This document shows positions 1,266-23,279 of a DNA stretch of 42,895 nucleotides, piece by piece (within the stretch, counting starts at the first letter, position 1; every line of letters begins with the position of its first letter). The DNA is taken from the NCBI GenBank assembly GCA_964646945.1, contig CAZYIL010000003.1:1-42895 (forward strand). The letters run 5' to 3'. Source of the stretch: an uncultured Marinoscillum sp. (GTDB lineage Bacteria; Bacteroidota; Bacteroidia; Cytophagales; MED-G16). Both the position numbers and the translations under genes were made by a program. The notes beneath the pieces were generated by a model, which saw only the letters and a program-made list of their open reading frames with translations, was not told the DNA's origin and did not search any database.

Positions 1266-2315
1266 ATGAAAAGAGTACATGATAAATTAAATATTTTGAT
1301 TGTTTGCACTGTGGTAGCGATTGCTGCAGTTGGTTATCTTCTTATACAAACAGGAACTATTGATCCAACTATGGCTTCAGGTTCTGGTATAACAAGTATT
1401 AAAAAAGCTGAAAAGTATTCTAAAAAGAATACTGTTGAAGTAGAATTAGAAGGTGAAGAAATGCAAGAAGTTTTGCAGAACGAAAACTTCATGAGTATGA
1501 TTGGATCACCTGAATTTGCTAAACTAGTTGAAAACGATGAATTTTTAAAAGTTCTTGACGATCCTGTGTTTAGCATTGTAGCTGATGTATTGGGAAATGG
1601 TGAATTAATGAGTAATGAACCTTTGACATCTCAAGGAAGAGACGGTGGAGGATTAGGGAAGGATTTAAGAGAAGGAACAGTAGGAGGTACTGGTGCAGAT
1701 TTTAACCCAGACAGAGGTGCTGCAGGTGGTGGTGTTAGAGATGGTAATACTCATATCTCTCAATCAGGTGGTGAAAACTTTGGTCCTGACAATATTTCTA
1801 ATTCAGGAGGAAAAGGTCCAGGAAAACTTCTTATGAAAATGGGAGAATTTCAAAAATTCTTGAAAGGAGCTGATTTTCAAAAGTTTGCTAATAGAGCTGA
1901 ATTTCAAAAGTTCATGAAAAGTGGAGCTGATTTTTCAAAATTTGCGAAAGATGCTGCATTTCAAAAATTTCAGAAAGGAGCTGATTTTCAAAAATTTCAA
2001 AAAGGAGCTAATTTTCAAAAATTCATGAAAGATGCTACTTTACAAAAATTCATGAAAGGAGCTGATCTTCAAAAGTTTGCTAAAGGAGCTGATCTTCAAA
2101 AGTTTGCTAAAGGAGCTGCTTTTGCAAAATTTGCTAAAAATCAAGACTTTATGAAGTTCATGAAAGGAGCTGATTTTCAAAAATTTATGAAAAGTGGAGC
2201 TTACGATAATTTTGATAATGGAGCTTCTTTTCAAAAATTCATGAAAGGCGCTGATTTTCAAAAATTCATGAAAGGCGCTGAATTCCAAAAATTTCAGAAA
2301 GGCGCTGTAGAGTAA
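1266..2315 (+). CDS. Hypothetical N-terminally anchored/secreted protein with 9-aa tandem repeats (KGADFQKFM)
   Basis: 349-aa ORF. N-terminal hydrophobic segment (LNILIVCTVVAIAAVGYLLI), acidic 9-aa-periodic block, Gly-rich linker, about 17 basic 9-aa repeats. Has its own promoter box and terminator. Confidence 0.9.
   Translation: MKRVHDKLNILIVCTVVAIAAVGYLLIQTGTIDPTMASGSGITSIKKAEKYSKKNTVEVELEGEEMQEVLQNENFMSMIGSPEFAKLVENDEFLKVLDDPVFSIVADVLGNGELMSNEPLTSQGRDGGGLGKDLREGTVGGTGADFNPDRGAAGGGVRDGNTHISQSGGENFGPDNISNSGGKGPGKLLMKMGEFQKFLKGADFQKFANRAEFQKFMKSGADFSKFAKDAAFQKFQKGADFQKFQKGANFQKFMKDATLQKFMKGADLQKFAKGADLQKFAKGAAFAKFAKNQDFMKFMKGADFQKFMKSGAYDNFDNGASFQKFMKGADFQKFMKGAEFQKFQKGAVE
1836..2312 (+). 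repeat. Imperfect 27-nt coding tandem repeat, about 17 copies (consensus AAA GGA GCT GAT TTT CAA AAA TTC ATG)
   Basis: Units read directly: KMGEFQKFL, KGADFQKFA, NRAEFQKFM, KSGADFSKFA, KDAAFQKFQ, KGADFQKFQ, KGANFQKFM, KDATLQKFM, KGADLQKFA x2, KGAAFAKFA, KNQDFMKFM, KGADFQKFM, KSGAYDNFD, NGASFQKFM, KGADFQKFM, KGAEFQKFQ. Confidence 0.95.
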
Positions 2316-2336: not shown

Positions 2337-2376
2337 AAAAAGGGAGAAAATAAGAATATTTTCTCCTTTTTTTTTT
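2337..2376 (+). terminator. Rho-independent terminator after the repeat-protein gene
   Basis: AAAAAGGGAGAAAATA-AGAA-TATTTTCTCCTTTT hairpin followed by a T-run, about 21 nt after the stop codon. Confidence 0.88.
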
Positions 2377-2405
2377 ATCTTCATGATACAAAATATTTTG
2401 AAGTG

Positions 2406-5400
2406 ATGAAAAAGTTCTTTATTCTAATTTTCTTTTCGATTCTTTTCAGTTTTAATTCTTTATTTTCTCAATTAAATAAGTTAGAGATTTCTGATTTTCA
2501 TATAGTTACTCTTAGTTTTGCTCATTCTCACATTCTACCACATGCTGCTCGATGTGCTCATAATGCACTTAATTTTCATAGAAAATTATTTGATTATGAA
2601 CCTAGAGAGAAAATCTATGTTATGATACAAGATTTCGGTGATTATGGAAATGGTGGTGCAACTTCCTTACCTAATAACATGGTTTCAACGTGTATTTCTC
2701 CTATGAATTACGCTTTTGAATCCAGTGTTGCTGGGGAAAGAGTATTTGCTATCATGAATCATGAACTTGTACATATTACAGCCTTAGATAATTATTCCAA
2801 TACTGATGTTTTCTATAGAAATCTTTTTGGTGGAAAGGTTAGAAATACAAATGATCATCCTATCTCTATGTTATACAGTTATCTTACCAATCCAAGATAT
2901 TATTCTCCTAGATGGTTTCATGAGGGTATTGCTGTATTTGTTGAAACTTGGATGGATGCCGGTACTGGTAACGCTCTTGGTAACTACGATGAAATGTTTT
3001 TTAGAACTAGAACATTTGAAAATTCTAGAATTTATTCTGCTCAAGGTTTGGAATCAGAAGGAACTTCAGCAGATTTCATGTCTAAAGCTAATTCTTATTA
3101 TTATGGAACTAGATTTATGAGTTATGTTGCTTATGAGTATGGACCTGATAATCTAATAGAATGGATAAAAAGAAAAGATGGAAGTAAACGTGGATTTGCT
3201 TCAAACTTTAAAAATGTTTTTGGTTTATCAATAAGTAAAGCTTGGAATAATTGGATCGATTTTGAAAGATCTTTTCAGAAAAAAAATATAGAGGGACTTA
3301 AAAAATATTCTGTAACGGAATATGAAAAAGTGACAGAAAGAGTTCTTGGAGGTGTTTCATATGCTTTTCATGATAAAAAAAAAAATAAAATTTATGTTGC
3401 TGTTAATTATCCTGGAAAAATACCACACATAGCAAGTATAAATTTACTAACGGGAGAAATTGATAGATTAAAGGATGTTAAAGGTCCTGCCCTTTTCAAT
3501 GTTACTTCGCTTGCTTATGATGAAAAAAATGATTTATTATTTTATACAACTGATAACAGTGCAAATAGAGATTTAAACAGTTATAATTTAAAAACAAAAG
3601 AATCTATATTATTACAAAAGGATTGTCATATTGGAGATTTAGCTTTTAACAAAAAAGATGAATCTATATGGGGAGTTAGACATCTGAATGGATATAATAC
3701 CATCGTGAGAATGCCAAAATACAATTCTGAATTTCCAAACGATTATTATATCAATTGGGAACAAAAATATACTTTACCTTATGGTCAAGATATTTTTGAT
3801 ATAGATGTATCACCTGATGGTCAAAAGCTTAGTGGAGCAGTTACTGATTATTTTGGAAATCAATATCTTAATATCTATGACATAGAATCGTTTGATAATG
3901 AAAATAAAGATGACATCATTTATAAAGAAGTTTTTAATTTTGATGTGGCTTCTCCACAAAGTTTTAGATATACAGAAAATGGAGATTTTTTGATAGGATC
4001 TTCATATTATACTGGTGTAAGCAATATATGGAGAGTTAATACAAAAACTTATGAAGCTGATGACATTAATCTAATGTCTAATGCTATTACTGGATATTTT
4101 AGACCTTTAGAAATTGATTCTGATAGATTATTTGCTTTTAAGTATACCAGTGATGGCTTCCTTCCTGTTTATATACCTAACATAATCATTGAAAATATTG
4201 AAACGATTCAATATTTAGGAAATGAAACAATTAAAAAACATTCTAAACTTGAGGAATGGGAAAATGCTATACCTACTTCAAAGAATGTTAATTTAGATGA
4301 AATAACTGTTGATGATGGTTATTATTTACCTAGAAAAGAAATGAAATTAAATTATGCTTATCCAATTGTTATAGGGTATAAGGATAATGTTGGTGTAGGG
4401 TATAAGTTTAATTTTGAAGATCCATTCAGCTTAAGATCTATTGATTTTTCTTTTTCATTCACACCAACAAAATGGAAAAATGGATTAAGTGATGGAAGTG
4501 TTGATATTGAGAAAGATGAACAATTGCATGCTTCTTTCAATTTTTCAACTAGTAAAGCAGGAGGCTTTTTGTCTGGAAATTATGATTTCTTTGCTCATTA
4601 TAATAAGGATAATTTTTATGATTTATTTGGTCCAACAAAAAGATCTAGAAAAGGATTATTATTTGGGTTTAACAATAGAAGATCTTTAGTTTTTGATGGT
4701 CCTAAAAACTTGGATTTAAGTCTTGGGTTTAGGGGTTTTTATGGCTTAGATCAATCTCCAGATTTTCAGCAGATTGATAATTTTGATAAGGACTATGATA
4801 CTAATCTATTTTATGATATTTTTTCCTCTCTGTCATTTAGAAATATAAGGAGATCAGTGGGAGCTGTGGATGGAGAGAAGGGTATTCTTATGTCTGTAAC
4901 TGGTTCTTCTTCGATTACTGAGGGAGCTTTTTATCCTACCTTTACAGGAAATTTTGATTTAGGGTTACAACTACCTATTAATCATACATCTCTTTGGCTT
5001 AGAAATGCTGCTGGTAATTCATTTAGTAAAGAGGTAAATCCTTTTTCAAGATTTGGATTTGCTGCTTTTGGAAACAATTATATCGACTATCTATCTTCAA
5101 AACGGTATAGGGGTACGTATTCTTTTCCAGGTGTGAGTTTTGATTCCGGAGAAAACATTATTGCTAAAACATTTTATAAGCTCACTGCAGAGTTATTGCT
5201 TCCTCCAGTAAGGTATAGAAAAGTTGGTTTTTTTAATTTCTTCGCATCTTGGTCTCATCCTACAATTTTTGCAGGATTTCTTACTGCAAAAGATATTAAT
5301 ATTTCTGGAATAGATATTAAAGAAAATTTTTATAATATTGGAATTCAGTTAGATACAAGGTTGGTGATGTTTTCTCACCTAGCTTCAACTTTATCAGTTG

Positions 5401-5474
5401 GTTGGGCAAGAGCATATGATATGGAAAATTCTAATAAATCTTATGATGAATGGATGATATCGTTAAAGTTTTAA
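2406..5474 (+). CDS. Outer-membrane protein: gluzincin (HEXXH) peptidase + TolB/WD40-like beta-propeller + C-terminal Omp85-like beta-barrel
   Basis: Signal peptide ending LFS-Q. HELVH (nt 2760-2774) with downstream PRWFHEGIAVF. Central propeller-like blades (DIDVSPDGQKLSG, SFRYTENGDFLIG). Amphipathic strands in the last ~380 aa ending in a beta-signal WMISLKF. ATG 2406 preferred over GTG 2403. Confidence 0.75.
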   Translation: MKKFFILIFFSILFSFNSLFSQLNKLEISDFHIVTLSFAHSHILPHAARCAHNALNFHRKLFDYEPREKIYVMIQDFGDYGNGGATSLPNNMVSTCISPMNYAFESSVAGERVFAIMNHELVHITALDNYSNTDVFYRNLFGGKVRNTNDHPISMLYSYLTNPRYYSPRWFHEGIAVFVETWMDAGTGNALGNYDEMFFRTRTFENSRIYSAQGLESEGTSADFMSKANSYYYGTRFMSYVAYEYGPDNLIEWIKRKDGSKRGFASNFKNVFGLSISKAWNNWIDFERSFQKKNIEGLKKYSVTEYEKVTERVLGGVSYAFHDKKKNKIYVAVNYPGKIPHIASINLLTGEIDRLKDVKGPALFNVTSLAYDEKNDLLFYTTDNSANRDLNSYNLKTKESILLQKDCHIGDLAFNKKDESIWGVRHLNGYNTIVRMPKYNSEFPNDYYINWEQKYTLPYGQDIFDIDVSPDGQKLSGAVTDYFGNQYLNIYDIESFDNENKDDIIYKEVFNFDVASPQSFRYTENGDFLIGSSYYTGVSNIWRVNTKTYEADDINLMSNAITGYFRPLEIDSDRLFAFKYTSDGFLPVYIPNIIIENIETIQYLGNETIKKHSKLEEWENAIPTSKNVNLDEITVDDGYYLPRKEMKLNYAYPIVIGYKDNVGVGYKFNFEDPFSLRSIDFSFSFTPTKWKNGLSDGSVDIEKDEQLHASFNFSTSKAGGFLSGNYDFFAHYNKDNFYDLFGPTKRSRKGLLFGFNNRRSLVFDGPKNLDLSLGFRGFYGLDQSPDFQQIDNFDKDYDTNLFYDIFSSLSFRNIRRSVGAVDGEKGILMSVTGSSSITEGAFYPTFTGNFDLGLQLPINHTSLWLRNAAGNSFSKEVNPFSRFGFAAFGNNYIDYLSSKRYRGTYSFPGVSFDSGENIIAKTFYKLTAELLLPPVRYRKVGFFNFFASWSHPTIFAGFLTAKDINISGIDIKENFYNIGIQLDTRLVMFSHLASTLSVGWARAYDMENSNKSYDEWMISLKF

Positions 5475-10318: not shown

Positions 10319-11671
10319 TTATTGATTTTGACTATTTCCTAAATAGTTTTTTGGTGTTATGTTAAGTAGTTCTCTTTTAACTTCATCGTTTACTGGCAGC
10401 GTTTTAATAAATTCTGCAATCATTTTTTTATTAACTTCTTTTTTTCCTCTAGTAATATTTTTTAACTTTTCATAAGGGTCTTTAACTTTTTCTCTTCTCA
10501 AAATAGTTTGAATGGCTTCAGCTATGACCATCCAATTATTATCAAGATCTATTTCAATTTCTTTCTTATTTACATCTATTTTTCTCATTCCTTTATAAAT
10601 AGATTCTAGAGCTATTTTAGTATAAGAAATTGGCACACCAATATTTCTTGAAACTGTTGAGTCTGTTAAATCTCTTTGAAGTCTAGAAATAGGAAGTTTA
10701 CTGGAAAGAAACAAAAACAAAGAATTTGCTATCATTAAATTTCCTTCAGCATTTTCAAAATCTATAGGATTAACTTTATGAGGCATAGCGGAAGATCCAA
10801 CTTCATTTTTATTTACTTTTTGTTTTAGATAGTTGATTGAGATATAGTGCCAGATATCTTTGCAAAGATCTATAAATATTGTATTTATTCTTGACAATGA
10901 ATGGAAAATAGCTGCCATATTATCATAATGTTCTATTTGCGTTGTTGGAGTACTTCTTGTTAGACCAATTTTTTTTAAGAATTTTTCAGCAAAAGAATCC
11001 CAGTTTATGGTAGGGTAGGAAACATAATGAGCATTAAGATTTCCAGATGCACCACCAAATTTTCCGTTGTTTGGTATTTTCATTAATGAATCAAGTTGAT
11101 TGTTTATTCTTGAACAGAATACAGATAGTTCTTTTCCAAAAGTTGTTGGAGTAGCAGGTTGACCATGGGTTCTGCCAATCATGGAAATTTCTTTATAATC
11201 TTTAGATTTCTTCTCAATCGATTTTAATAGTTGTTTTATTAGTGGAATTATAACTTCTTTCAAACAGTTTTTTAACATTAAGGGCATAGCTGTGTTATTA
11301 ATATCTTGCGAGGTAAGTCCAAAATGGACAAATTCTTTATACTCACTTAAGCCCATTATCTCGAACTTTTCTTTTATAAAATATTCGACAGCTTTTATAT
11401 CATGATTAATCCTTTTTTCAATTTCTTTAATCCTTTTAGCATCTTTCAAAGAAAAATTTTTAACTAAATCTCTAAGGTTTTTGAAATCACTAGAATTTAT
11501 TTTTTTTAGTTGAGGTAATTTATGCTCACAAAGAGCTATGAAATATTCTATTTCAACATAAATTCTGTATCTGATAAAAGCAAATTCAGAGAAGTATTGT
11601 GAAATTTCTTTTGTGATTTTATTATACCTTCCATCTACTGGATTTATTGCCGATAAGCTCGATAAATTCAT
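10319..11671 (-). CDS. purB: Adenylosuccinate lyase
   Basis: DGRY, HFGLTSQDINN, RTHGQPATPTT, GSSAMPHKVNPIDFENAEGN, SRLQRDLTDS. Confidence 0.97.
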   Translation of the reverse strand: MNLSSLSAINPVDGRYNKITKEISQYFSEFAFIRYRIYVEIEYFIALCEHKLPQLKKINSSDFKNLRDLVKNFSLKDAKRIKEIEKRINHDIKAVEYFIKEKFEIMGLSEYKEFVHFGLTSQDINNTAMPLMLKNCLKEVIIPLIKQLLKSIEKKSKDYKEISMIGRTHGQPATPTTFGKELSVFCSRINNQLDSLMKIPNNGKFGGASGNLNAHYVSYPTINWDSFAEKFLKKIGLTRSTPTTQIEHYDNMAAIFHSLSRINTIFIDLCKDIWHYISINYLKQKVNKNEVGSSAMPHKVNPIDFENAEGNLMIANSLFLFLSSKLPISRLQRDLTDSTVSRNIGVPISYTKIALESIYKGMRKIDVNKKEIEIDLDNNWMVIAEAIQTILRREKVKDPYEKLKNITRGKKEVNKKMIAEFIKTLPVNDEVKRELLNITPKNYLGNSQNQ

Positions 11672-13060: not shown

Positions 13061-13132
13061 TCTAAATTTTAGTCTGTTTAGACATCAATCACTTAATAAA
13101 AATTTATATATTTGGATATTGAAATATTTAAA

Positions 13133-16100
13133 ATGAATTTTACAAAAACCACTATAAAAACCTTATATTTTCTTTTCCCCTTATTTCTTTTCATTGTTGT
13201 TTCGTTATATCTATTTATAGATAAAAATATTGAAAAACCTAAATTTCAAGACCCTCATAAGTTCGAAGAATACTGGAGTCAAATAAAAGGAAAAGGTTAT
13301 TATCCAGGGTATAGGCAAGTTGAGCTTAATAAAATGCTTAGCAGATTAAATCAAAATCGTTTAACTGCTAATATTGGTATAGGTGATGAAGAAATATGGT
13401 TTGGTACTTCTGCAGCCGCTGCCGCTACTTTTACTGAAAGAGGTCCCAGTAATGTTCCTGGAAGAACAAGGGGAATAGTAGTTGATGCTGGTGATGCAAC
13501 AGGAAACACATGGTATGTTGGATCTGTAGGAGGAGGTCTTTGGAAAGGGGTATACACTTCTGATTCTTCTGGTGATTTTATTACATGGACTAATTTAACA
13601 CCTTCAACTGTATCAAACATTGCTGTTTCTACGGTTGCCCAGTCTGCTAACAATCCAAATATTCTCTATGTTGGTACTGGCGAATCTTGGTCATATAATG
13701 TAGATGCAATTAATGGGGATGGCATTTTTAAAGTGACATTAGGTGGAGCAGATCCTATATGGACAAATGTTACGCCTAGTTCGGGAGGAATTATAGATTC
13801 TAAATTTGGGAATATAAGTAGAATAATAGTCGATCCTGCCAATGAAAATATAGTTTTGGCAAGCACATTAGCTAATAATGGGCAATCTTATATTTTTAAG
13901 TCTTCCGATGGAGGAACCTCTTGGACAGAGGTTGAACAAGGAGGAAACAGAATTCAACAAATTGTCGCTGCTCCAAGCAATTTTAATATTCAGTATGCCG
14001 CTGTACGTACAAAACCTGTTTTGAAATCTACCAATGCAGGAGATACGTGGAAAGCATTGCCTGAAGTAGGAGCACCATCAGAATTTGGTATAGCAAGTAA
14101 CTCTTATGATCGTTATGAATTAGCTGTTTCTCATACAGATCCTAACAAAATATATGCTGGAATAGTAAAAACTTTTGGATCACCCGGACCCTCTTTTCTA
14201 TATAGATCTTTGGATGGTGGTTCTTCATGGACACATATTCCAGAAAATGGGGTTTCAGGAGATGCGAGATATACAACAGATTTTTGGCTTGATTCTCAGG
14301 GATGGTATGATAATTGTATAACAGTTCATCCTTTTGATGATAATATAGTCTATGTTGGTGGCATACAGATATTTAAGTTTACCGTTTTAGCTGATACTAC
14401 AAAGAATTCGACACATTTAACGGATGGCTACGGTGAAGTAGATGCCAAAAATTGGTATGTTCATGTAGATCAACATTTTTTAGGAACAATTGATGATGGA
14501 GGAGGAAAATTTAGAATATTGAATGGTAGTGATGGGGGAGTGGCTGTTACCCTTTCTGCTACGGATCCAGGAAATATAGATAACACTTGGGCTAATGTAA
14601 AAAACATAACAGCTGGAGGTTATAATACAACACAATTTTATGGAGCGGATAAAGTAAAAGGAGCACATGCATATGTTGGAGGAGCACAAGATAATGGGAC
14701 ATGGTTTTCAGACCCAGCTTCAAATGCAAGTAGTTCAACAAGTTATACATTAGGTGTTGGAGGGGATGGATTAGAAGTTGTTGCGCATTGGGATAATTCT
14801 GATTCCTTGATAGGAGGTTCACAATATAATAATTTTAAAAGAACTCTAAACAAAGGCACTCTTTGGACATATATTGGAACACCTTGGACTCCACATAATG
14901 GATCAGGTACAGGGCCTTTTATTAACAGGCTTTCTTCTTCCTATCAGGATGCTGACGTGGTTTATGCCATTGGTGATGATGGTATCCATAAGTCAAAAGA
15001 TTTTGGTGGCGGCTGGCAATTAAAAGTACCTCCTGATATAGGTGGATGGGGTGCTAATGATGTAGAAGTTTCAATGGCTAATCCTAGATTTGTTTGGGCT
15101 GGAGGATTTATTTCTGGCTCTGGTAATTTATATCTTTCTAAAGATTGGGGTAACACTTTTCAAGCTGTTGTAGATAAGCCTAGTGGAGTATCTAGTTCTA
15201 TTTCAGGGATATATTCTCATCCTAGTGAAGATTCAACTGTTTATGTTCTTTTCTCCTCTTTTGGAAGGGGTAAAATTTTTGAAACCAAAGATTTGGGTGC
15301 TACCTGGACAGATATTTCTGGATTCCCTTCTAATTGGACAAGTGGAGTTTCTTCCAGTGGTTTTCCTAATGTTGCAGTAACCAGTCTTGCAGTCATGCCA
15401 TTTGATTCTGATGTTATTTGGGCAGGAACAGAAATAGGTCTTGTGGAAACAACAAATAGGGGAACTAGCTGGAGCTTAGTTACTCAGATGCCACATGTAA
15501 GTATATGGGACATGAAAATTAAAGATCAAGGAGAGATTGTGCTTGCTACGCATGGAAGAGGTATTTGGACTGCTACTATTCCGGATCTTGTTAGTTGGCA
15601 ACCTAAAGAAAATCAAATTACCTTGTCTGTAGATACAGTAAATATTGCTGAAAATGGTGGTGTGGCAATCCTAACATTTACTGCAGGAAAAGATGTTTCA
15701 CCTAATGGTCCAATTACAGTGAATTTGTCTGCTAGTGGAACTGCTACTGGTTCTGAATATACTTTAAGCGCAACTTCTATCACGCTCGATTCTACAAGCA
15801 CTACTAAAACGGCTACTATCACTTCGGTAAACGATGGTGACGAAGAAACGGATGAAACAGTTATAATAGATATTTCTTCTGTTGTAAATGGAAAGGAATC
15901 AGGGACACAACAAGTTACCGTTACTATTAAAGATGATGATGGAGTTAGTGCCCCTCCTGTTGTAACTATTGCTGTTGATCAGGCCAACATAGCTGAAGCT
16001 GCTGGTGTCTCTACGATAACAGCTACTTTAGATAAAGCTCCAAATTCTGGCGATGTGGTCATTTCTTTAAGTACTGGAGGTACCGCTGCAGCATCTGATT

Positions 16101-16564
16101 ACACTTTAAGTTCAAGTACCATTACCATTGCTTCAGGAACGACTGGTACAGCAACAGTTACTGCTGTTCAGGATTCAGAGGATGAAGATAATGAAACTGT
16201 GGTGATAGATATTTCTTCTGTAAGTAATGGGTCTGAATCAGGCACCCAACAAGTTACAGTCACTATAACGGATGATGATGATACGGTTGCAGGTATTGAA
16301 GATTTTGTATCAGGAAAAGCAATAAGCATTTATCCAAACCCTAGTTCTGGAATCTTCACCATCAGGTTTAACGATACTTGGAAAGGTAATGTAGACCTAA
16401 GAGTATTAGATATTTTTGGTAGAGCACAATACCTTAGAATGATAGATAATGCATCTGGTCAAGTGGAACATGAAGTTGATATTTCAAACAAAACCGATGG
16501 ACTTTTCTTTGTAGAATTATCACAAGATGATAAAAGAGCAATTAGAAAAATCATCAAGAAATAA
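13133..16564 (+). CDS. T9SS-secreted BNR/Asp-box (VPS10/GH74-like) propeller protein with two Calx-beta-like domains (paralog 1)
   Basis: Repeated S-x-D-G-G-x-T/S-W boxes, ERGPSNVPGRTR, ATHGRGIW. Two Thr-rich Calx-beta-like repeats (DETVIIDISSV...QQVTVTIxDDD). CTD IYPNPSSG...IRKIIKK. ATG 13133 preferred because TTG 13112 lies inside a TATATTTG promoter box. Confidence 0.85.
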   Translation: MNFTKTTIKTLYFLFPLFLFIVVSLYLFIDKNIEKPKFQDPHKFEEYWSQIKGKGYYPGYRQVELNKMLSRLNQNRLTANIGIGDEEIWFGTSAAAAATFTERGPSNVPGRTRGIVVDAGDATGNTWYVGSVGGGLWKGVYTSDSSGDFITWTNLTPSTVSNIAVSTVAQSANNPNILYVGTGESWSYNVDAINGDGIFKVTLGGADPIWTNVTPSSGGIIDSKFGNISRIIVDPANENIVLASTLANNGQSYIFKSSDGGTSWTEVEQGGNRIQQIVAAPSNFNIQYAAVRTKPVLKSTNAGDTWKALPEVGAPSEFGIASNSYDRYELAVSHTDPNKIYAGIVKTFGSPGPSFLYRSLDGGSSWTHIPENGVSGDARYTTDFWLDSQGWYDNCITVHPFDDNIVYVGGIQIFKFTVLADTTKNSTHLTDGYGEVDAKNWYVHVDQHFLGTIDDGGGKFRILNGSDGGVAVTLSATDPGNIDNTWANVKNITAGGYNTTQFYGADKVKGAHAYVGGAQDNGTWFSDPASNASSSTSYTLGVGGDGLEVVAHWDNSDSLIGGSQYNNFKRTLNKGTLWTYIGTPWTPHNGSGTGPFINRLSSSYQDADVVYAIGDDGIHKSKDFGGGWQLKVPPDIGGWGANDVEVSMANPRFVWAGGFISGSGNLYLSKDWGNTFQAVVDKPSGVSSSISGIYSHPSEDSTVYVLFSSFGRGKIFETKDLGATWTDISGFPSNWTSGVSSSGFPNVAVTSLAVMPFDSDVIWAGTEIGLVETTNRGTSWSLVTQMPHVSIWDMKIKDQGEIVLATHGRGIWTATIPDLVSWQPKENQITLSVDTVNIAENGGVAILTFTAGKDVSPNGPITVNLSASGTATGSEYTLSATSITLDSTSTTKTATITSVNDGDEETDETVIIDISSVVNGKESGTQQVTVTIKDDDGVSAPPVVTIAVDQANIAEAAGVSTITATLDKAPNSGDVVISLSTGGTAAASDYTLSSSTITIASGTTGTATVTAVQDSEDEDNETVVIDISSVSNGSESGTQQVTVTITDDDDTVAGIEDFVSGKAISIYPNPSSGIFTIRFNDTWKGNVDLRVLDIFGRAQYLRMIDNASGQVEHEVDISNKTDGLFFVELSQDDKRAIRKIIKK

Positions 16565-16616
16565 AAATTTTCTTTTAAACTTCACTTATTAAACAAATAT
16601 ATTTTATTAGATTAGA

Positions 16617-19600
16617 ATGATAAACAACACTATGCAAAAATTTTTTTCTTTCTTTTCCTTTTTTCTTTTAATTGCTGTTTTAATCTACAATGAAAAAGAA
16701 AAAAACGTTAATATAGAATCTCAATATGCTGAACCAGATAAGTACGCTAGATTTTTTTATGAAATTTCTCATTTTGAGGGAGGACCAAATTATTATCCAG
16801 GATATAAGCAGGTAGAGCTTAATAAAATGCTGGATCGATTAAATGATACTCGCTTAAGTGCCAGTAACAAACAAGGAGATGGAGATATACCTTTTAGCTC
16901 TTCTGCTGCAGCTACTGCAACTTTTACGGAAAGGGGACCAAACGATGTGCCTGGAAGAACAAGAGGTGTAGTCGTTGATGCTGGTGACACATCAGGAAAC
17001 ACATGGTATGCTGCTGGTGTTGGTGGTGGATTATGGAAAGGAGTTTATAATTCAACAACTACAAATGTTTCTTGGACAAATATGACACCATTGACAATCC
17101 AAAATCTTGCCATTGTTACCTTAGCGCAATCTGCTAGCAATCCAAACATTATATATGCTGGGACAGGAGAATCTGCTTTAGGTGCTTCTACTGCCATTGA
17201 TGGTGATGGTATTTTTAAAATAGATGTCAGTGATGCAAGTAGTCCTGTATGGACAAATATCTCTCCTAAAGTTGGGGGCTTAATTGATCATCGATTTGGG
17301 AGTGTTAATAGAGTAATCGTAGATCCTTCCAATGCGGATATTATAGTTGCAAATACTTATTCTTTTTCATCTACTTACAAGACATATATATTCAAATCAA
17401 CTGATGGAGGATCAAATTGGACTGAAGTACATGAAGATAATGTTAGTGGAGATATACAACAAATTGTTGCAGCACCAACTGATTTTAACATACAATACGC
17501 TGGTTTTAAAAGAAACAAAGTTTTAAAATCGATAGACGCAGGATCTAACTGGAATGAAACTGCTGATTTTGGTATCCCTGAATACGGTCGTGTTGAATTA
17601 GTTGTATCTAATACGAATCCTAACAAAGTATATGCTGGAGTTAGAAATGGAAGTAGTGGGCCTTCTTATTTACTTAGAACAGTTAATGGAGGTAATTCAT
17701 GGTATCAGATACAAGAGAACGCTACTTTAGGGGATGTCAACCATAGCCCAGACTATTGGTTGAATCAACAAGGGTGGAGAGATAATACTCTTGGTGTAAA
17801 TCCTTATGATGATGATATTTTATATGGAGGAGGAGTATCTCTTTATAAATTTACAGTCTTAGCTGATAGCACGAAAATAACTGAAGCAATGGCATCTGGA
17901 CCACATGTTGATCATCAATTTATACAAGGAATAGAGGATGGAGGCGGTGTTAATTTTAGATTGTTGAATGCTAGTGATGGAGGTGTAGCGTATACTACTC
18001 AAGTAACTTCTAATCCGGGTATGAGTTTTGGTGATTGGAAAAGAGCTGATGATGGATTTAATACATCACAATTTTATGGGGCAGATAAGATAAAAGGAAG
18101 GCAACAATACATCGGTGGAATGCAAGATAATGGAACACAAATATCTTGGCCGAGTTCTGAAAATGCTAGCGCAACGACAGATTATGCTTTGGTAGTGGGT
18201 GGAGATGGTTTTGAAGTAATAGCTCATTGGAATAATCCTGATTCTATGATGGGGGGTTCTCAATATAATGGGTTAAGAAGAAGTCTTAATGGAGCATTGA
18301 CTTGGACTTCTATTTCATCGGGAATGAGTGGTAGTCCCATTGGTCCATTTTTAGTTCGATTATCTAGTCCATACCATGAACCGGACGTTGTATATGCAAT
18401 TCATGATACTGCTGGAGTTTGGAAATCTACTGATTTTGGTGCTACTTGGAATTTAAAAACTATTTCAGATGGAGGGTGGAAAGGGTATCGTAAAGATGTA
18501 GAAGTATCACTTGCTAATCCTCGTTTTGTTTGGGCTGGTTCTAGAATTGGTAATGAGGGTGGTAATTTATATCTTTCTAAAGATTGGGGAGAATCTTTTA
18601 GTCCTGTTTCAGATCCTATTCCAGACTATAATAACGTTAGCTCTTCAGGTATTTATTCACATCCTAATGAAGATTCTACTGCATATGTTCTTGTTTCTTT
18701 TTTTGGAAGAGCTAAAATTTTTGAAACGAAAGATTTAGGAACTTCTTGGACAGATATTTCTGGATTTCCAGCTAATTGGGAAAAAGGGGTCTCGAATAGA
18801 GGATTTCCTAATGTAAAGGTTTTTAGTCTTTGCGTCATGCCTTTTGATCCTAATGTAATATGGGCGGGAACAGATATTGGAATAGTAGAGACAACAGATC
18901 GAGGGGCTAGCTGGAATATTATTTCTTCCAACTTACCACATGTCAATATCTGGGATATGAAAGTTAAAGATCAAGGGGAAATTGTGATGGCAACTCACGG
19001 AAGAGGGATATGGACTGCTACAATTCCAGATCTTATTAATTCAGAGCCAAAAGAAAATTCAATTACAATAACTAGTAATGGTTCTCAAAACATTAATATT
19101 GAAGAAAATGGAGGAGTAGCCACTATAACAGCTACTGCTACAAGAGATGTAAATCCCGCATTTCCTGTAGTGGTTTCTTTAAGTGCTGGTGGTACAGCAT
19201 CCGCATCCGATTACACATTAAGTTCTAATAACATTACTATTGCTTCAGGGAAATCTGGTACAGCTACAGTTACCGCTTTGCATGACTTGGATGTTGAGCC
19301 TGTAGAAACTGTGGTGATAGATATTTCATCTGTAACCAATGGAAAAGAGGCAGGCACACAACAGGTAACTGTCTCAATCATGGATGGTGATAACACGGTT
19401 GCTGGGATAGAAGACCTTACATCAGGAAAAGAAATCAGCATTTATCCAAACCCTACTTCTGGAATCTTCACGATCAAGTTTAACGATACTTGGAAAGGAA
19501 ATGTAGATCTAAGGGTATTAGGTATTTTTGGTAGAGCGCAATATCAAAGAAATATTGATAACGCTTCTGGTCAGGTAGAACATGAAGTAGATATTTCGAA

Positions 19601-19676
19601 CAAAACTGATGGAATTTTCGTATTAGAATTAGTGCAGGGAGATAAGAGAGTAATTAGAAAAATTGTAAAACAATAG
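16617..19676 (+). CDS. T9SS-secreted BNR/Asp-box propeller protein with one Calx-beta-like domain (paralog 2)
   Basis: Same motif order as paralog 1. CTD IYPNPTSG...IRKIVKQ. Confidence 0.85.
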   Translation: MINNTMQKFFSFFSFFLLIAVLIYNEKEKNVNIESQYAEPDKYARFFYEISHFEGGPNYYPGYKQVELNKMLDRLNDTRLSASNKQGDGDIPFSSSAAATATFTERGPNDVPGRTRGVVVDAGDTSGNTWYAAGVGGGLWKGVYNSTTTNVSWTNMTPLTIQNLAIVTLAQSASNPNIIYAGTGESALGASTAIDGDGIFKIDVSDASSPVWTNISPKVGGLIDHRFGSVNRVIVDPSNADIIVANTYSFSSTYKTYIFKSTDGGSNWTEVHEDNVSGDIQQIVAAPTDFNIQYAGFKRNKVLKSIDAGSNWNETADFGIPEYGRVELVVSNTNPNKVYAGVRNGSSGPSYLLRTVNGGNSWYQIQENATLGDVNHSPDYWLNQQGWRDNTLGVNPYDDDILYGGGVSLYKFTVLADSTKITEAMASGPHVDHQFIQGIEDGGGVNFRLLNASDGGVAYTTQVTSNPGMSFGDWKRADDGFNTSQFYGADKIKGRQQYIGGMQDNGTQISWPSSENASATTDYALVVGGDGFEVIAHWNNPDSMMGGSQYNGLRRSLNGALTWTSISSGMSGSPIGPFLVRLSSPYHEPDVVYAIHDTAGVWKSTDFGATWNLKTISDGGWKGYRKDVEVSLANPRFVWAGSRIGNEGGNLYLSKDWGESFSPVSDPIPDYNNVSSSGIYSHPNEDSTAYVLVSFFGRAKIFETKDLGTSWTDISGFPANWEKGVSNRGFPNVKVFSLCVMPFDPNVIWAGTDIGIVETTDRGASWNIISSNLPHVNIWDMKVKDQGEIVMATHGRGIWTATIPDLINSEPKENSITITSNGSQNINIEENGGVATITATATRDVNPAFPVVVSLSAGGTASASDYTLSSNNITIASGKSGTATVTALHDLDVEPVETVVIDISSVTNGKEAGTQQVTVSIMDGDNTVAGIEDLTSGKEISIYPNPTSGIFTIKFNDTWKGNVDLRVLGIFGRAQYQRNIDNASGQVEHEVDISNKTDGIFVLELVQGDKRVIRKIVKQ

Positions 19677-19703
19677 TTTTTCAATAATAATTTTAAAAAT
19701 CCT

Positions 19704-19711
19704 TATCTTTG
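19704..19711 (+). promoter_or_regulatory. -7 promoter box for paralog 3
   Basis: TATCTTTG about 22 nt before ATG 19734. Confidence 0.55.
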
Positions 19712-19733
19712 TACCTTGAAAAATTTTCTTTAC

Positions 19734-22700
19734 ATGAACAAAAGACGATTTATATTTCTAATAAAAGGACTAATTCTTCCAATCATATTAATTTCTTTAT
19801 TTTTTTCCTATTACAATAATACTAATACAACTCAAGAATATGGGACTGAAAAATATCGTGGTCCTGCTGAATTTAAAAAATATTTTTCTGCAATAAAAAG
19901 AGGAGAAAATCCAGATTCTCCAATACAGTACAGATCAGGTTATAAGGAGTTAGAACTTAAAAAAATGCAAGAAAACATAAGTAAGCGTGCTTTTTTACGC
20001 TCTTCTACAAATCAAAAAGATGAAGATTCTCCAACTTTTGGAAGTTCTGCTGCAGCTACTGCAACTTTTACTGAAAGAGGACCTAATAATGTCCCTGGAA
20101 GAACAAGAGCTATAGTAGTAGATGCTGCTGATGCTTCTGGAAATACATGGTATGCTGGTGCAGTAGGGGGTGGAGTCTGGAAAACGACTAATTCTGGTGT
20201 TAATTGGACTTCTTTGTCAGAAGATATGGAAAATATTGCTATATCGAGTATTGCTCAATCTGCTAATAATCCTTCTATTTTATATGCTGGTACTGGTGAA
20301 AGTTGGGTTGGAAACATCGATGCTATTGATGGAAGTGGAATATTTAAATCAATAGATGGCGGTGCTAATTGGACAAATATTTCGAAAAAATCAGGAAGTA
20401 TAATTGACGAAAAGTTTTTTCAAGTTAGTAGGGTAGTAGCAGATCCTTCTAATGCTAATGTTGTAGTGATATCAACAATGTCATCAAGTGGAATAACATA
20501 TATTTTTAAATCAACCGACGGTGGATTAAATTGGATGGAAGCTAAACAGGGAATTAAGCCAATTCAACAGGTTGTGGCTTCTCCTAGTAGTTTTGATACT
20601 CTTTATGCAGCTGTTAATAGTTCTAATGTACTTAAATCAGTGGATGCAGGTTCTACTTGGACTGATGTAACGGGTTTTGGAAGTGCTACTGGTACCTATA
20701 CTAGAGTTGAAATTGCAGTAGCTCATAGTACAGCAAATATCGTATATGCAGCTATAGTAGGTAATAATATCTCTTTCCTATATGTCTCATTTGATGGAGG
20801 TATTTCTTGGACAGAGGCTAAAAATAATGATGGGTCAAAGGATGGTTGGTTAAATATACAAGGGTGGTATGATAATTGTATAACTGTAAACCCATACAAT
20901 GATAGTATAGTTTATGTAGGGGGAATAGATACTTATAAATTTACTTTAGATGGTAAAAATTGGAATCTTGGTTTAATGAACAAGGATGGAATTCATATTA
21001 CTGATGGTTATAATGATATTGATTCTTTAAATACAAATGTACATGTTGATCATCATTTTTTAGGAACTATTAAGGATGGAGGAGGAAAATTTAGAATTTT
21101 ACATGGAAATGATGGGGGTGTGGCAGTATCCAAATCTAGCATAAACCCTGGAGAAACCGATGGTGATTTTACACTAGCTGATTCTGGATATAATACATCT
21201 CAGGCTTATGGGGCGGATAAAGTAAAAGAAGCTCATCAGTATATTAGTGGTTTTCAAGATAATGGAACATGGCTTTCTCCAAAAGGTGAAAACGCTTCTT
21301 CATCTTCTGATTATACCTATAAGATAGGAGGTGATGGTTTTGAAGTGATTACCCATTGGAATAATTCAGATTCTATGATGGGAGGATACCAAAATAATGG
21401 GTTATGGAGATCTATGGACGGTGGAAATGTTTGGTATTTTGTAGCAACTAACGAAATGCGAAATAATGGTCCATTTATAACAAGAATATCTACATCATAT
21501 CAAGATCCGGATGTAGTATATGCTGTCAGTGGTTTAGGTGCTCATAAGTCAAAAAACTTTGGAGGTTCTTGGAAGACAGTTTCTATGGATTCAGGTTGGA
21601 GTTTTTGGTCTGGTTCAGATATTGAGGTTTCCCAAGCGAATCCTAGATTTGTTTGGGCTGGAGGAGAAATGAGTTCTGTTGGTAATATTTTTGTATCTAA
21701 AGATTGGGGTGAATCTTTCACTGCAGTACCTGATTTTGCAAATATTGGAAAAATTTCAGGTTTATATTCTCACCCTACTGAAGACTCAACAGCTTATATC
21801 CTTTTTTCTTCATTTGGAAGAGCTAAAATTATAGAAACAAAAGATTTGGGAGCCACTTGGACTGATATCTCTGGATTTCCTGCAAATAACGTTGCGGGTT
21901 TATCTTCAAATGGTTTTCCTAATGTTCCCGTATATAGTTTAGCTGTGATGCCTTTTGATAGTGATGTGATATGGGCAGGAACCGATATAGGTCTAGTAGA
22001 ATCCACAGATAGAGGAACAACTTGGAATCTTGTAAATAGCAATTTACCTTATGTGAGCATATGGGATATGAAAATTAAAGATCAAGGAGAAATTGTTTTA
22101 GCAACACATGGTAGGGGAGTTTGGACAGCTACTATTCCTGCTTTAACTTCTTTTGTTCCTAAGACAGTAATACTTCAACCAGAATTAGTTAGTTATAATC
22201 AACCCGGTTCTGAATTTAAAGTTGATATTAGAATTAAACTAAAATCCGTTTTTGATTCTATTCAATTTAAAACCGATAACACTTTACTACATACCTTTTA
22301 TGATGCTGATACCTTAGGAATGGATACAATTAATGTCACATTTTCAGCTGCAGGAACTTATCCTGTTATAGCGACAGGTTATAAAAATGGAATAGCATAT
22401 TCCTCAAATACTATGAATATTATTGTAGCTCTTACATTAGCTATTGCTGAGACATTTGGCACTGATTTTTCAGGATTAAGTGGTGATGAATTTACTTTGA
22501 ATGGATTTAAAATAGGTACAGTTGGCGGTTTTAGTACGGGAGAAATTTTACATTCCTATCCAAACCCTTATCAAAATGCTGGATCCGGTGGAGAAATTCA
22601 TTTAATAGCAACACTGAATTCTCCTTTAATAATATCTAACTATACTCCTTCTATTAAATTTAGAGAAGTAGCTATTGTTGAAATTGGAGAGCCTGGTTCA

Positions 22701-23279
22701 TATTATGGAAGTGCTGAATTTTGGGATTATGTTATTGTTGAAGCTTCAAAACATAAAGAAGATAATTGGAAAGCTCTTATTGATGGTTATGATTCAAATA
22801 CTCATTCTGATTGGTTAGTAGCTTATAACTCTGAAATATCAGCTACATCAACTATGTTAAAGTCAAGAGAGATTCAATTTACACCTAAATTTTCTGTTGG
22901 AGATACTGTAAAACTTAGATTTAGATTATTTTCTGATCCATTCACAGTAGGATGGGGATGGGCAATAGATGATTTGTATATACAAATGGATCCTCCTGTA
23001 GTTTCAGGTATTGAGGACCCTCAAGAAGATATAGGTATAAATATTTATCCTAATCCTTCAGATGGTATATTTAATGTGAAATTTAATAATGTATGGAAAG
23101 GAAATATAGATATTAAAGTTTTGGATATTTTTGGAAGAAATCAACATCAAAATATTCTTGATAATTCTTCTGGGAATGAAACACATAAAATAAATCTTTC
23201 AAATAATTCAAATGGACTTTACATTTTGGAATTGAACCAAGATGGTAAAAGGGTTGTCAAAAAGATTATCAAAAAATAA
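19734..23279 (+). CDS. T9SS-secreted BNR/Asp-box propeller protein with Ig-like and jelly-roll accessory domains (paralog 3)
   Basis: Same N-terminal family. C-terminal part differs (WDYVIVEAS...DGYDS...LRFRLFSDP...GWGWAIDDL). CTD IYPNPSDG...KKIIKK. ATG 19734 preferred over TTG 19716. Confidence 0.85.
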   Translation: MNKRRFIFLIKGLILPIILISLFFSYYNNTNTTQEYGTEKYRGPAEFKKYFSAIKRGENPDSPIQYRSGYKELELKKMQENISKRAFLRSSTNQKDEDSPTFGSSAAATATFTERGPNNVPGRTRAIVVDAADASGNTWYAGAVGGGVWKTTNSGVNWTSLSEDMENIAISSIAQSANNPSILYAGTGESWVGNIDAIDGSGIFKSIDGGANWTNISKKSGSIIDEKFFQVSRVVADPSNANVVVISTMSSSGITYIFKSTDGGLNWMEAKQGIKPIQQVVASPSSFDTLYAAVNSSNVLKSVDAGSTWTDVTGFGSATGTYTRVEIAVAHSTANIVYAAIVGNNISFLYVSFDGGISWTEAKNNDGSKDGWLNIQGWYDNCITVNPYNDSIVYVGGIDTYKFTLDGKNWNLGLMNKDGIHITDGYNDIDSLNTNVHVDHHFLGTIKDGGGKFRILHGNDGGVAVSKSSINPGETDGDFTLADSGYNTSQAYGADKVKEAHQYISGFQDNGTWLSPKGENASSSSDYTYKIGGDGFEVITHWNNSDSMMGGYQNNGLWRSMDGGNVWYFVATNEMRNNGPFITRISTSYQDPDVVYAVSGLGAHKSKNFGGSWKTVSMDSGWSFWSGSDIEVSQANPRFVWAGGEMSSVGNIFVSKDWGESFTAVPDFANIGKISGLYSHPTEDSTAYILFSSFGRAKIIETKDLGATWTDISGFPANNVAGLSSNGFPNVPVYSLAVMPFDSDVIWAGTDIGLVESTDRGTTWNLVNSNLPYVSIWDMKIKDQGEIVLATHGRGVWTATIPALTSFVPKTVILQPELVSYNQPGSEFKVDIRIKLKSVFDSIQFKTDNTLLHTFYDADTLGMDTINVTFSAAGTYPVIATGYKNGIAYSSNTMNIIVALTLAIAETFGTDFSGLSGDEFTLNGFKIGTVGGFSTGEILHSYPNPYQNAGSGGEIHLIATLNSPLIISNYTPSIKFREVAIVEIGEPGSYYGSAEFWDYVIVEASKHKEDNWKALIDGYDSNTHSDWLVAYNSEISATSTMLKSREIQFTPKFSVGDTVKLRFRLFSDPFTVGWGWAIDDLYIQMDPPVVSGIEDPQEDIGINIYPNPSDGIFNVKFNNVWKGNIDIKVLDIFGRNQHQNILDNSSGNETHKINLSNNSNGLYILELNQDGKRVVKKIIKK

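Follow-up and report, generated by a model that had tools for sequence, protein, structure and literature searches.

A membrane-anchored nonad-repeat protein encoded beside two predicted proteases is a candidate arm of an envelope proteolysis module

Within a 42,895-nt stretch of DNA from an uncultured Marinoscillum sp. of the Cytophagales (GenBank assembly GCA_964646945.1, contig CAZYIL010000003.1, forward strand; the whole stretch is hereafter the window), we analyzed a gene, here called REP, whose product carries a long array of nine-residue (nonad) repeats. The explanation we lean towards, based on sequence comparison and gene context, is that REP serves as the periplasmic sensor or substrate arm of an undescribed envelope proteolysis module built around the intramembrane protease PrsW and a predicted outer-membrane zinc peptidase. 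REP is predicted to be anchored in the inner membrane, such that the N terminus faces the cytoplasm and the C-terminal part lies in the periplasm. The full module would comprise a sigma factor of the extracytoplasmic function (ECF) type, an anti-sigma factor, REP, an outer-membrane protein combining an HExxH peptidase, a TolB-like propeller and a barrel (hereafter the partner), and PrsW. In the streamlined Cytophagales genome of the window, only REP, the peptidase and PrsW occur together, without an adjacent sigma pair. REP belongs to a family that is unnamed but widespread. The original prediction for this reading frame described its repeats, which were borne out by our analysis, and missed both its transmembrane (TM) anchor and its gene context.

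Gene order around REP in genomes and metagenomes

The order REP, peptidase, PrsW was found at 25 of 28 genome loci, and the remaining 3 end inside or just after the REP or peptidase gene. A further 80 metagenome loci were fetched by the head motif of REP alone, 66 of them with a REP open reading frame (ORF). Here, the peptidase gene comes next after REP in 36 of the 38 loci having at least 600 nt downstream. Among the 23 loci where the peptidase gene is present in full length and the downstream sequence extends for at least 900 nt, 18 have PrsW no more than three genes away. On the other side, 32 of the 51 loci having at least 900 nt upstream carry an ECF sigma gene at most two genes upstream of REP. 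These sigma and PrsW calls were upheld by Pfam on a sample. The common full order is sigma, anti-sigma (~260 aa), REP, partner, PrsW, and at some loci the anti-sigma factor and REP are fused into one protein. In relatives beyond the clade of the window, REP usually follows such a sigma/anti-sigma pair or has its array joined to the anti-sigma factor. A reverse search starting from the peptidase recovered the partner gene in 14 of 150 sampled Bacteroidota genomes. At all 8 loci with a close partner homologue (at least 41% identity), a gene encoding the REP head lies directly upstream, and three of these loci encode a single protein that combines an anti-sigma domain with the REP head.

Where the anti-sigma factor and REP are encoded by separate genes, both proteins carry the motif G[TSA][ILVM], mostly as GTIG (22 of 22 loci). 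It is found within 30 residues after the hydrophobic segment, ~10-20 residues beyond it, and the surrounding residues are sometimes near-identical between the two proteins. By analogy, this juxtamembrane motif, common to REP and the anti-sigma factors of the module, could act as a recognition site.

Additional genes occur upstream of the module sigma factor. A STAS-domain protein of the anti-sigma antagonist type is encoded repeatedly, at several metagenome loci, immediately before the sigma gene, which suggests a partner-switching input. At L048 it matches PF13466 (E 1.1e-13, positions 2140-2424 of that locus), and ORFs of 94 aa lie upstream of the module sigma at L043, L093, L105, L111 and L116. 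Beside the STAS gene there is often an ORF of 134-145 aa, joined at L087, L105 and L106 by one of 428 aa.

The partner peptidase and PrsW

Among 27 partner sequences sharing 39-72% identity, the HExxH residues (H120, E121, H124) and E174/E181 do not vary, and Pfam returns a weak match to Peptidase_MA_2 (E 0.0087). Its AlphaFold2 (AF2) model is confident, with a predicted local distance difference test score (pLDDT) of 82.6 and a predicted template modeling score (pTM) of 0.81. In this model, a helical/alpha-beta domain (aa 1-300) is followed by a beta-propeller (310-595) and then by long beta-strands running from ~640 up to the C-terminal Phe. Foldseek matched the model to TolB and prolyl-oligopeptidase propellers. 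Atlas cluster labels for partner relatives read D15/Omp85, PD40 and Peptidase_MA_2 and, by the same labels, these relatives are found in Bacteroidota, Gemmatimonadota, Myxococcota and other phyla. The gene that follows is assigned to the PrsW family by Pfam PF13367 (E 3.1e-32, above cut-off) and by NCBIfam intramemb_PrsW (E 2.9e-44, below the equivalog cut-off). This PrsW match is unique in the assembly of the window, in which one M50 site-2 protease is likewise present.

Two observations concern partner relatives. In a Cytophagales metagenome-assembled genome (MAG; L021, 7128-10300), the partner is split into ORFs of 808 and 207 aa, which may reflect a frameshift or an assembly error. A distant partner subfamily of ~30% identity (1219-1242 aa in L128 and L133) has no nonad protein upstream; small secreted proteins with 16-residue repeats (e.g. 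SNSQLEEMGTRLGFTR) precede the partner homologue at these two loci, which suggests that an upstream repeat protein may be general to the partner family. An 'EEAIRFRA' stretch in these repeat proteins recalls 'AAKRYRA' of the REP head. At L129, L131 and L132, the 16-residue-type repeat is found only in short ORFs, in other frames or on the opposite strand.

Layout of REP and its nonad array

REP can be divided into a short basic tail and TM helix, a juxtamembrane motif, an acidic head, a spacer and a basic array (Table 1). An N-in/C-out topology is suggested by relatives (P0131, P0088, P0084, P0091) that begin with an anti-sigma domain and continue into the same TM helix and head, an arrangement that would place the repeat part outside the cytoplasm. 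Anti-sigma-fused relatives match NCBIfam NF052375 at E 2.5e-10 to 6e-4, below its curated cut-off. In window REP, only 9 residues precede the TM helix, and a class I anti-sigma domain is absent.

Within the juxtamembrane motif SGSGITSIKKAEKY, G41, I42, K47, A48 and K50 are invariant across 12 close relatives. The head region (aa 61-116) has a net charge of -11 (13 D/E, 2 K/R), and its sequence EGEEMQEVLQNENF (aa 62-75) fits the family pattern 'GEExQxLLQNxxF', continuing into 'F..L' nonads. An acidic N-terminal block with the same nine-residue period had been proposed for REP, and we find the period residues at M66, F75, F84, F93 and F102. Across 27 close and distant relatives, L61, Q67, F75, F84 and F93 are nearly invariant. 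The spacer has a pLDDT <50 and no secondary structure in the AF2 model, and it cannot be aligned between genera.

Tandem Repeats Finder reports a 27-nt period at 1848-2307 (16.9 copies, 71% matches, score 313). Counted on the protein, the array contains 17 units, confirming the ~17 basic KGADFQKFM repeats described originally. Their [F/L/Y]xK/N-F cores begin at aa 195-340, with a spacing of 9 residues in 15 of 16 cases and of 10 residues in the other. The Phe pair described at i and i+3 holds: in the unit K-G-A-D-F-Q-K-F-M, position 8 is Phe in 17 of 17 units, and position 5 is occupied by Phe (13 units), Leu (3) or Tyr (1). All but one of the 17 units have Lys at position 7. Overall, aa 186-349 carry a net charge of +18 (34 K/R, 16 D/E), with 30 F and 10 M.

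Table 1. Features of REP and of the genes that follow it in the window
Feature	Position	Strand	Basis
REP, membrane-anchored nonad-repeat protein gene, 349 aa	1266..2315	+	ORF, translation, 25 close homologues, dN/dS
REP cytoplasmic tail, aa 1-9 (MKRVHDKLN, basic), and single predicted TM helix, aa ~10-28	1266..1349	+	sequence, AF2 helix 3-28
REP juxtamembrane motif SGSGITSIKKAEKY, aa 38-51, family 'SGTIG..KKY' signature	1377..1418	+	alignment
REP acidic head, five nonads: GEEMQEVLQ, NENFMSMIG, SPEFAKLVE, NDEFLKVLD, DPVFSIVAD	1452..1586	+	alignment, charge, dN/dS
REP Gly-rich variable spacer, aa 117-185, 20 Gly	1614..1820	+	pLDDT, dN/dS, alignment
REP basic array, 17 nonads, consensus KGADFQKFM	1836..2312	+	repeat finding, unit count, AF2, dN/dS
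Terminator-like hairpin and T run between REP and peptidase gene	2337..2382 (hairpin 2337-2372)	+	stem-loop search, RNA fold
Partner, 1023 aa: signal peptide, HExxH domain, TolB-like beta-propeller, C-terminal beta-barrel (predicted)	2403..5474	+	alignment, Pfam, AF2, Foldseek
PrsW-family intramembrane protease, 258 aa	5486..6262	+	PF13367, intramemb_PrsW

The REP family conserves a nine-residue period

A word-indexed search returned 25 REP homologues at E <= 1e-27 with the same layout and varying unit number; the closest genome relatives are MAGs recorded as Marinoscillum sp., Cytophagales or Flammeovirgaceae, and the orthologues of the L013-L024 and L027 clade have 15-20 units. An exhaustive search of representatives gave 110 proteins at E <= 0.001, some of which are low-complexity matches. 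True distant relatives have in common the TM helix, 'GTIGAAKKYRAEQ', 'D.E.Q.LLQND.F' and long nonad arrays, with quite different unit sequences such as NADFNNLVK, DPAFRQFAQ and NDAFHDLLN. Window REP shows this family layout throughout: a TM helix with the SG(T)I...K(K)Y motif, an acidic head, a nine-residue array and a position upstream of an HExxH-propeller-barrel gene.

From genome and metagenome loci we assembled a family set of 77 ORFs of at least 250 aa. In 74 of them the peak of the hydrophobic autocorrelation falls at lag 9 (55 ORFs) or lag 18 (19 ORFs); the other 3 have it at lag 10 or 20. Unit sequence diverges rapidly between lineages and is homogeneous within one protein; by these comparisons, the family conserves the nine-residue period rather than the unit sequence. 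The acidic head is present in 65 of the 77 members, and a basic tail in 13, 12 of which belong to the clade of the window; most relatives have a neutral or acidic tail. The homologues at L087, L105 and L106 have a 10-residue period (DNAAVRAALI-type units) with weak Pentapeptide_4 and UBQLN1 matches.

Selection on REP

Protein-level selection on the repeats had originally been proposed from synonymous variation among the DNA copies. Such variation is genuine but modest: Phe8 is encoded by TTC in 7 units and TTT in 10, Lys7 by AAA in 11 and AAG in 5, and Gly2 by GGA in 9 and GGC in 2. Comparison with three same-genus orthologues (L013-L015) provides a stronger test and supports the proposal. The ratio of nonsynonymous to synonymous substitution (dN/dS) is 0.05-0.08 in the basic nonads, 0.06-0.07 in the anchor and head and 0.47-0.53 in the linker, although synonymous divergence (pS) of 0.5-0.7 is near saturation and these ratios are thus rough. 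They indicate strong purifying selection on the anchor, the head and the nonads, but not on the spacer (~0.5). Furthermore, individual unit variants hold their array positions between orthologues.

These values bear on whether the array could be a low-complexity by-product that an AT-rich genome generates and that serves no specific function. The assembly of the window (1.8 Mb, 80.8% complete) has ~29% GC, local GC around REP is 0.26-0.30, the repeat unit consists of AT-rich codons and its consensus has G+C at only 7 of 27 nt. The Lys/Phe-rich composition of the array in this clade is probably in part such a by-product. As an account of REP itself, however, the idea is barely credible and already contradicted by the dN/dS of 0.05-0.08 and by an architecture and neighbors that are kept across phyla, including GC-rich ones. 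RNA-library contigs (4 runs, 4 studies) fall on parts of 1187-2290, including the ORF, and speak for presence only. Almost none fall on 2423-4480, which is not readable as lower expression, and contig ends near 2281-2290 in three runs are not readable as a transcript end.

Predicted structure of the nonads and the fiber and lipid alternatives

An AF2 monomer of REP, built with a 27-sequence alignment, is helical at 3-28 and has five short helices between 64 and 110. Residues 111-185 are unstructured, and across the array (186-348) each nonad forms one 7-8-residue helix. This agrees with the short helical units that had been proposed (pLDDT ~60-78 in the array, 55 overall). Outside the TM helix, no helix longer than 15 residues is predicted. 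Pfam and NCBIfam searches with window REP found no significant family, and a 27-member family profile found nothing significant among PDB sequences (DUF262, E 0.018; 5apz, E 0.076). The relative L056 has a sole PDB match, to a metalloproteinase at E 0.49. One homologue is named 'F0F1-type ATP synthase delta subunit' by JGI, which we treat as a repeat artifact, like the weak OSCP matches of repetitive relatives. Reverse-strand self-matches of REP reflect repeat symmetry and are not genes, as they contain many stop codons.

A cell-envelope sensing or proteolysis role is more likely for REP than that of a self-assembling fiber. In the fiber alternative, which we judge quite unlikely, the nonads would assemble into an oligomeric rope spanning the periplasm as a tether, spacer or ruler, either as a GerD-like superhelix or as an alpha/beta coiled coil of three chains in which a beta-layer recurs every nine residues. 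Nonads with 3-6 hydrophobic spacing do form trimeric alpha/beta coiled coils in Tcar0761 (PMC4786415), and the position-stable unit variants of REP suggest a defined structure. The family profile also weakly matches that Tcar0761 construct, 5apz, although at E 0.076 this is not significant. Known arrays of this kind have a beta-layer consensus of [aliphatic]-A-T-K-[polar]-[DE] and are flanked by long heptad coiled coils (PMC4786415). In REP, A-T-K occurs in 0 of 17 units, the corresponding stretch being F-M/A/Q-K-G-A-D, and no flanking heptad coiled coil is predicted. Many relatives, moreover, begin their units with Asp/Asn-Pro, the helix-cap motif of DP repeats.

As for a GerD-like form, a single relative among the 77 (L063) passes Pfam GerD (E 8.2e-9), and the GerD core PF17898 is absent from the 6 families that window REP matches at E <= 10. 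The superhelical rope of the original prediction gained support from none of the analyses run. Nor can head-to-tail assembly by charge, also proposed there, be the core mechanism of the family, since an acidic head is common (65 of 77 members) but a basic tail occurs in only 13.

The same count limits a lipid-binding role, in which Lys/Phe mini-helices would lie on an anionic membrane surface (the outer face of the inner membrane or the inner face of the outer membrane) as a tether or as a sensor of curvature or packing. In each unit, one face of the helix does present F, F and M while Q, K and K line the other, and the array combines its net charge of +18 with 30 Phe. With basic tails confined to 13 of 77 members, however, lipid binding would be at most a clade-specific addition, and no lipid-binding family was matched by window REP in Pfam or NCBIfam. 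We consider this role improbable.

Likeness to the DP repeats of STI1/HOP

The likeness to STI1/DP repeats raised in the original prediction finds evidence at the level of the family. Pfam STI1-HOP_DP (PF17830) matches 27 of the 77 relatives at E <= 0.001 and is listed for 7 of 10 distant REP relatives at E <= 0.1. Among the 77, 11 match UBQLN1. One relative, L099, matches the DP1 and DP2 regions of human Hop at E 7.2e-5, and reaches E 0.55 against DP2 of yeast Sti1. From these matches, a likeness of the REP family to DP repeats appears reasonable, whereas membership of the window protein, which falls below the Pfam cut-off, is unsupported.

STI1 domains are described as flexible helical hands that bind hydrophobic helices (PMC8010706). 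A bolder reading, possible and in our judgment rather doubtful, is that nonad arrays correspond, in the bacterial periplasm, to the client-binding STI1/DP domain of eukaryotes. As long strings of mini-helices with hydrophobic grooves, tethered to the membrane, they would capture unassembled outer-membrane proteins or lipoproteins and thereby gate two proteases. Capture would gate PrsW in the inner membrane together with the BamA-like barrel carrying the zinc peptidase in the outer membrane and, in most phyla, would switch on the ECF sigma factor. If true, this would amount to an undescribed, widespread pathway of envelope quality control and signaling, present in the window in a form that has no sigma/anti-sigma pair next to it.

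How REP may act, and what weighs against it

In the explanation we favor, that of a sensor or substrate arm, the nonad array would reach across the periplasm on its flexible Gly-rich spacer and serve as a sensing module arm, a cleavable one, or both. It may bind exposed hydrophobic segments or the periplasmic domains of the partner, for example by docking on its propeller; alternatively, REP itself may be cut by PrsW, the outer-membrane peptidase or both. In B. subtilis, PrsW and RasP cleave the anti-sigma factor RsiW (PMC5358783).

Several results weigh against this explanation and against the STI1 likeness. No sigma/anti-sigma pair adjoins REP in the window, and the three ECF-like sigma genes elsewhere in the assembly (80.8% complete) include none beside a REP-type anti-sigma gene, with one located at a contig end. 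A putative terminator (16-pair stem, 4-nt loop, RNA fold -18.4 kcal/mol, z -3.06) splits REP from the peptidase gene, such that the two may not be co-transcribed. Confidence in the AF2 model of REP is low (mean pLDDT 55). The model gave 0 Foldseek matches in the PDB at E <= 10, and its best VIA alignment reached Z 3.7, with all alignments within noise, including that to the Tic40 NP-repeat domain 2lnm (Z 3.2). Window REP scores 9.7 bits against STI1-HOP_DP (E 1.1; cut-off 29.1), over aa 84-102 only, and none of the 12 closest relatives scanned (L013-L023, L027) matches this family at E <= 0.001. Although 18 of the 77 relatives reach 29.1 bits over the whole protein, no single stretch passes alone, and the same repetitive proteins match unrelated families (Ribos_L4_asso_C in 8 of 77, Plasmodium_HRP in 6 of 77). 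Summation over repeats therefore inflates the STI1-HOP_DP scores in part. L056, another relative with regular repeats, matches no STI1 structure in the PDB, nor human Hop or yeast Sti1.

It is also conceivable that REP is a substrate and nothing else: a tandem precursor, or a sacrificial tail, cut by the outer-membrane peptidase, PrsW or both, with no binding of its own. This overlaps with the explanation favored here and does not exclude it. Two protease genes do lie beside REP, units diverge fast between lineages yet remain homogeneous within a protein, and, by analogy with the RsiW precedent, the array of anti-sigma fusions would have to be removed before intramembrane proteolysis. We nevertheless regard it as unlikely, given position-conserved unit variants, strong purifying selection on the whole array and a strict nine-residue period across phyla, the last of which points to a structural constraint beyond cleavability.

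Other features of the window

Directly upstream of REP, on the same strand, lies purA (adenylosuccinate synthetase, 1-1107). This gene precedes REP only in same-genus loci (L013-L015) and not in other genera, and we accordingly place it outside the module. An adenylosuccinate lyase gene is found at 10319-11671, 8 kb downstream of REP on the opposite strand. The sequence TATATTTG at 1138-1145, ~120 nt upstream of the REP start, fits what we take to be the Bacteroidetes -7 consensus, TAnnTTTG. A scan for sigma-70-type promoters gave 8 sites, compared with 5.8 in shuffled sequence, and hence no excess. GC climbs to 0.33-0.39 between 12001 and 22000, compared with 0.26-0.30 elsewhere in the window, and three very large ORFs (1150, 1019 and 1187 aa) occupy 13112-23279, in this higher-GC part.

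Implications and comparison with known systems

If REP is indeed a sensor or substrate arm, many double-membrane bacteria would monitor or process their envelope by a common, unstudied device, in which a repeat-protein arm is combined with PrsW and with a zinc peptidase carried in the outer membrane by an Omp85-type barrel. PrsW-type regulated proteolysis would then extend from the Gram-positive sigma-W system to Gram-negative envelopes, and the STI1/DP repeat would gain a bacterial relative. The value of the window lies in its reduced three-gene form, with the repeat protein and two proteases together and no adjacent sigma/anti-sigma pair. We found no description of the REP-peptidase-PrsW module in the literature searched; the supplements of the ECF re-classification paper, which may list this context, lay outside that search.

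Like STI1/HOP DP (and ubiquilin STI1, Sgt2-C and the Tic40 NP-repeat), the REP family has amphipathic short helices about nine residues apart. Its units often begin with Asp/Asn/Ser-Pro, carry hydrophobics at i, i+3 and i+4 and are rich in Met and Phe. Known STI1 domains, however, are eukaryotic, cytosolic or plastid, consist of some five helices and in most cases come after TPR or UBL domains (PMC8010706), whereas the REP family is bacterial, membrane-anchored and predicted to be periplasmic, with 15-40 units. With the alpha/beta coiled coils of Tcar0761 and OMP100 (Hartmann et al. 2016, PMC4786415), REP has in common the strict nine-residue period and the 3-6 spacing; it differs in having neither the A-T-K beta-layer motif nor flanking heptads.

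The partner resembles the WD40-Omp85 cluster of the Omp85/TpsB superfamily catalogued by Heinz and Lithgow in 2014 (PMC4104836), with a TolB-like propeller N-terminal to an Omp85-type barrel. The main text of that catalogue mentions neither a peptidase domain nor a linkage to PrsW or a repeat protein.

Two signaling systems offer parallels to the module as a whole. With the regulated intramembrane proteolysis of sigma-W/RsiW/PrsW/RasP in B. subtilis, the module has in common a PrsW-family protease, encoded here next to a single-pass membrane protein whose extracytoplasmic part is large. In REP relatives, REP is, or adjoins, an anti-sigma factor behind an ECF sigma gene, and the assembly of the window encodes an M50 site-2 protease. 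Window REP differs in having no anti-sigma domain and no adjacent sigma gene, and its extracytoplasmic part is a nonad array whose cleavage by PrsW is suggested by analogy. The module also adds the outer-membrane HExxH-propeller-barrel protein, which would be impossible in a Gram-positive system. FecA-FecR-FecI signaling, for its part, combines an outer-membrane protein, a single-pass inner-membrane regulator whose arm extends into the periplasm, and an ECF sigma factor, all encoded together. The module described here differs from it in having no TonB-dependent transducer or FecR domain and in encoding proteases.

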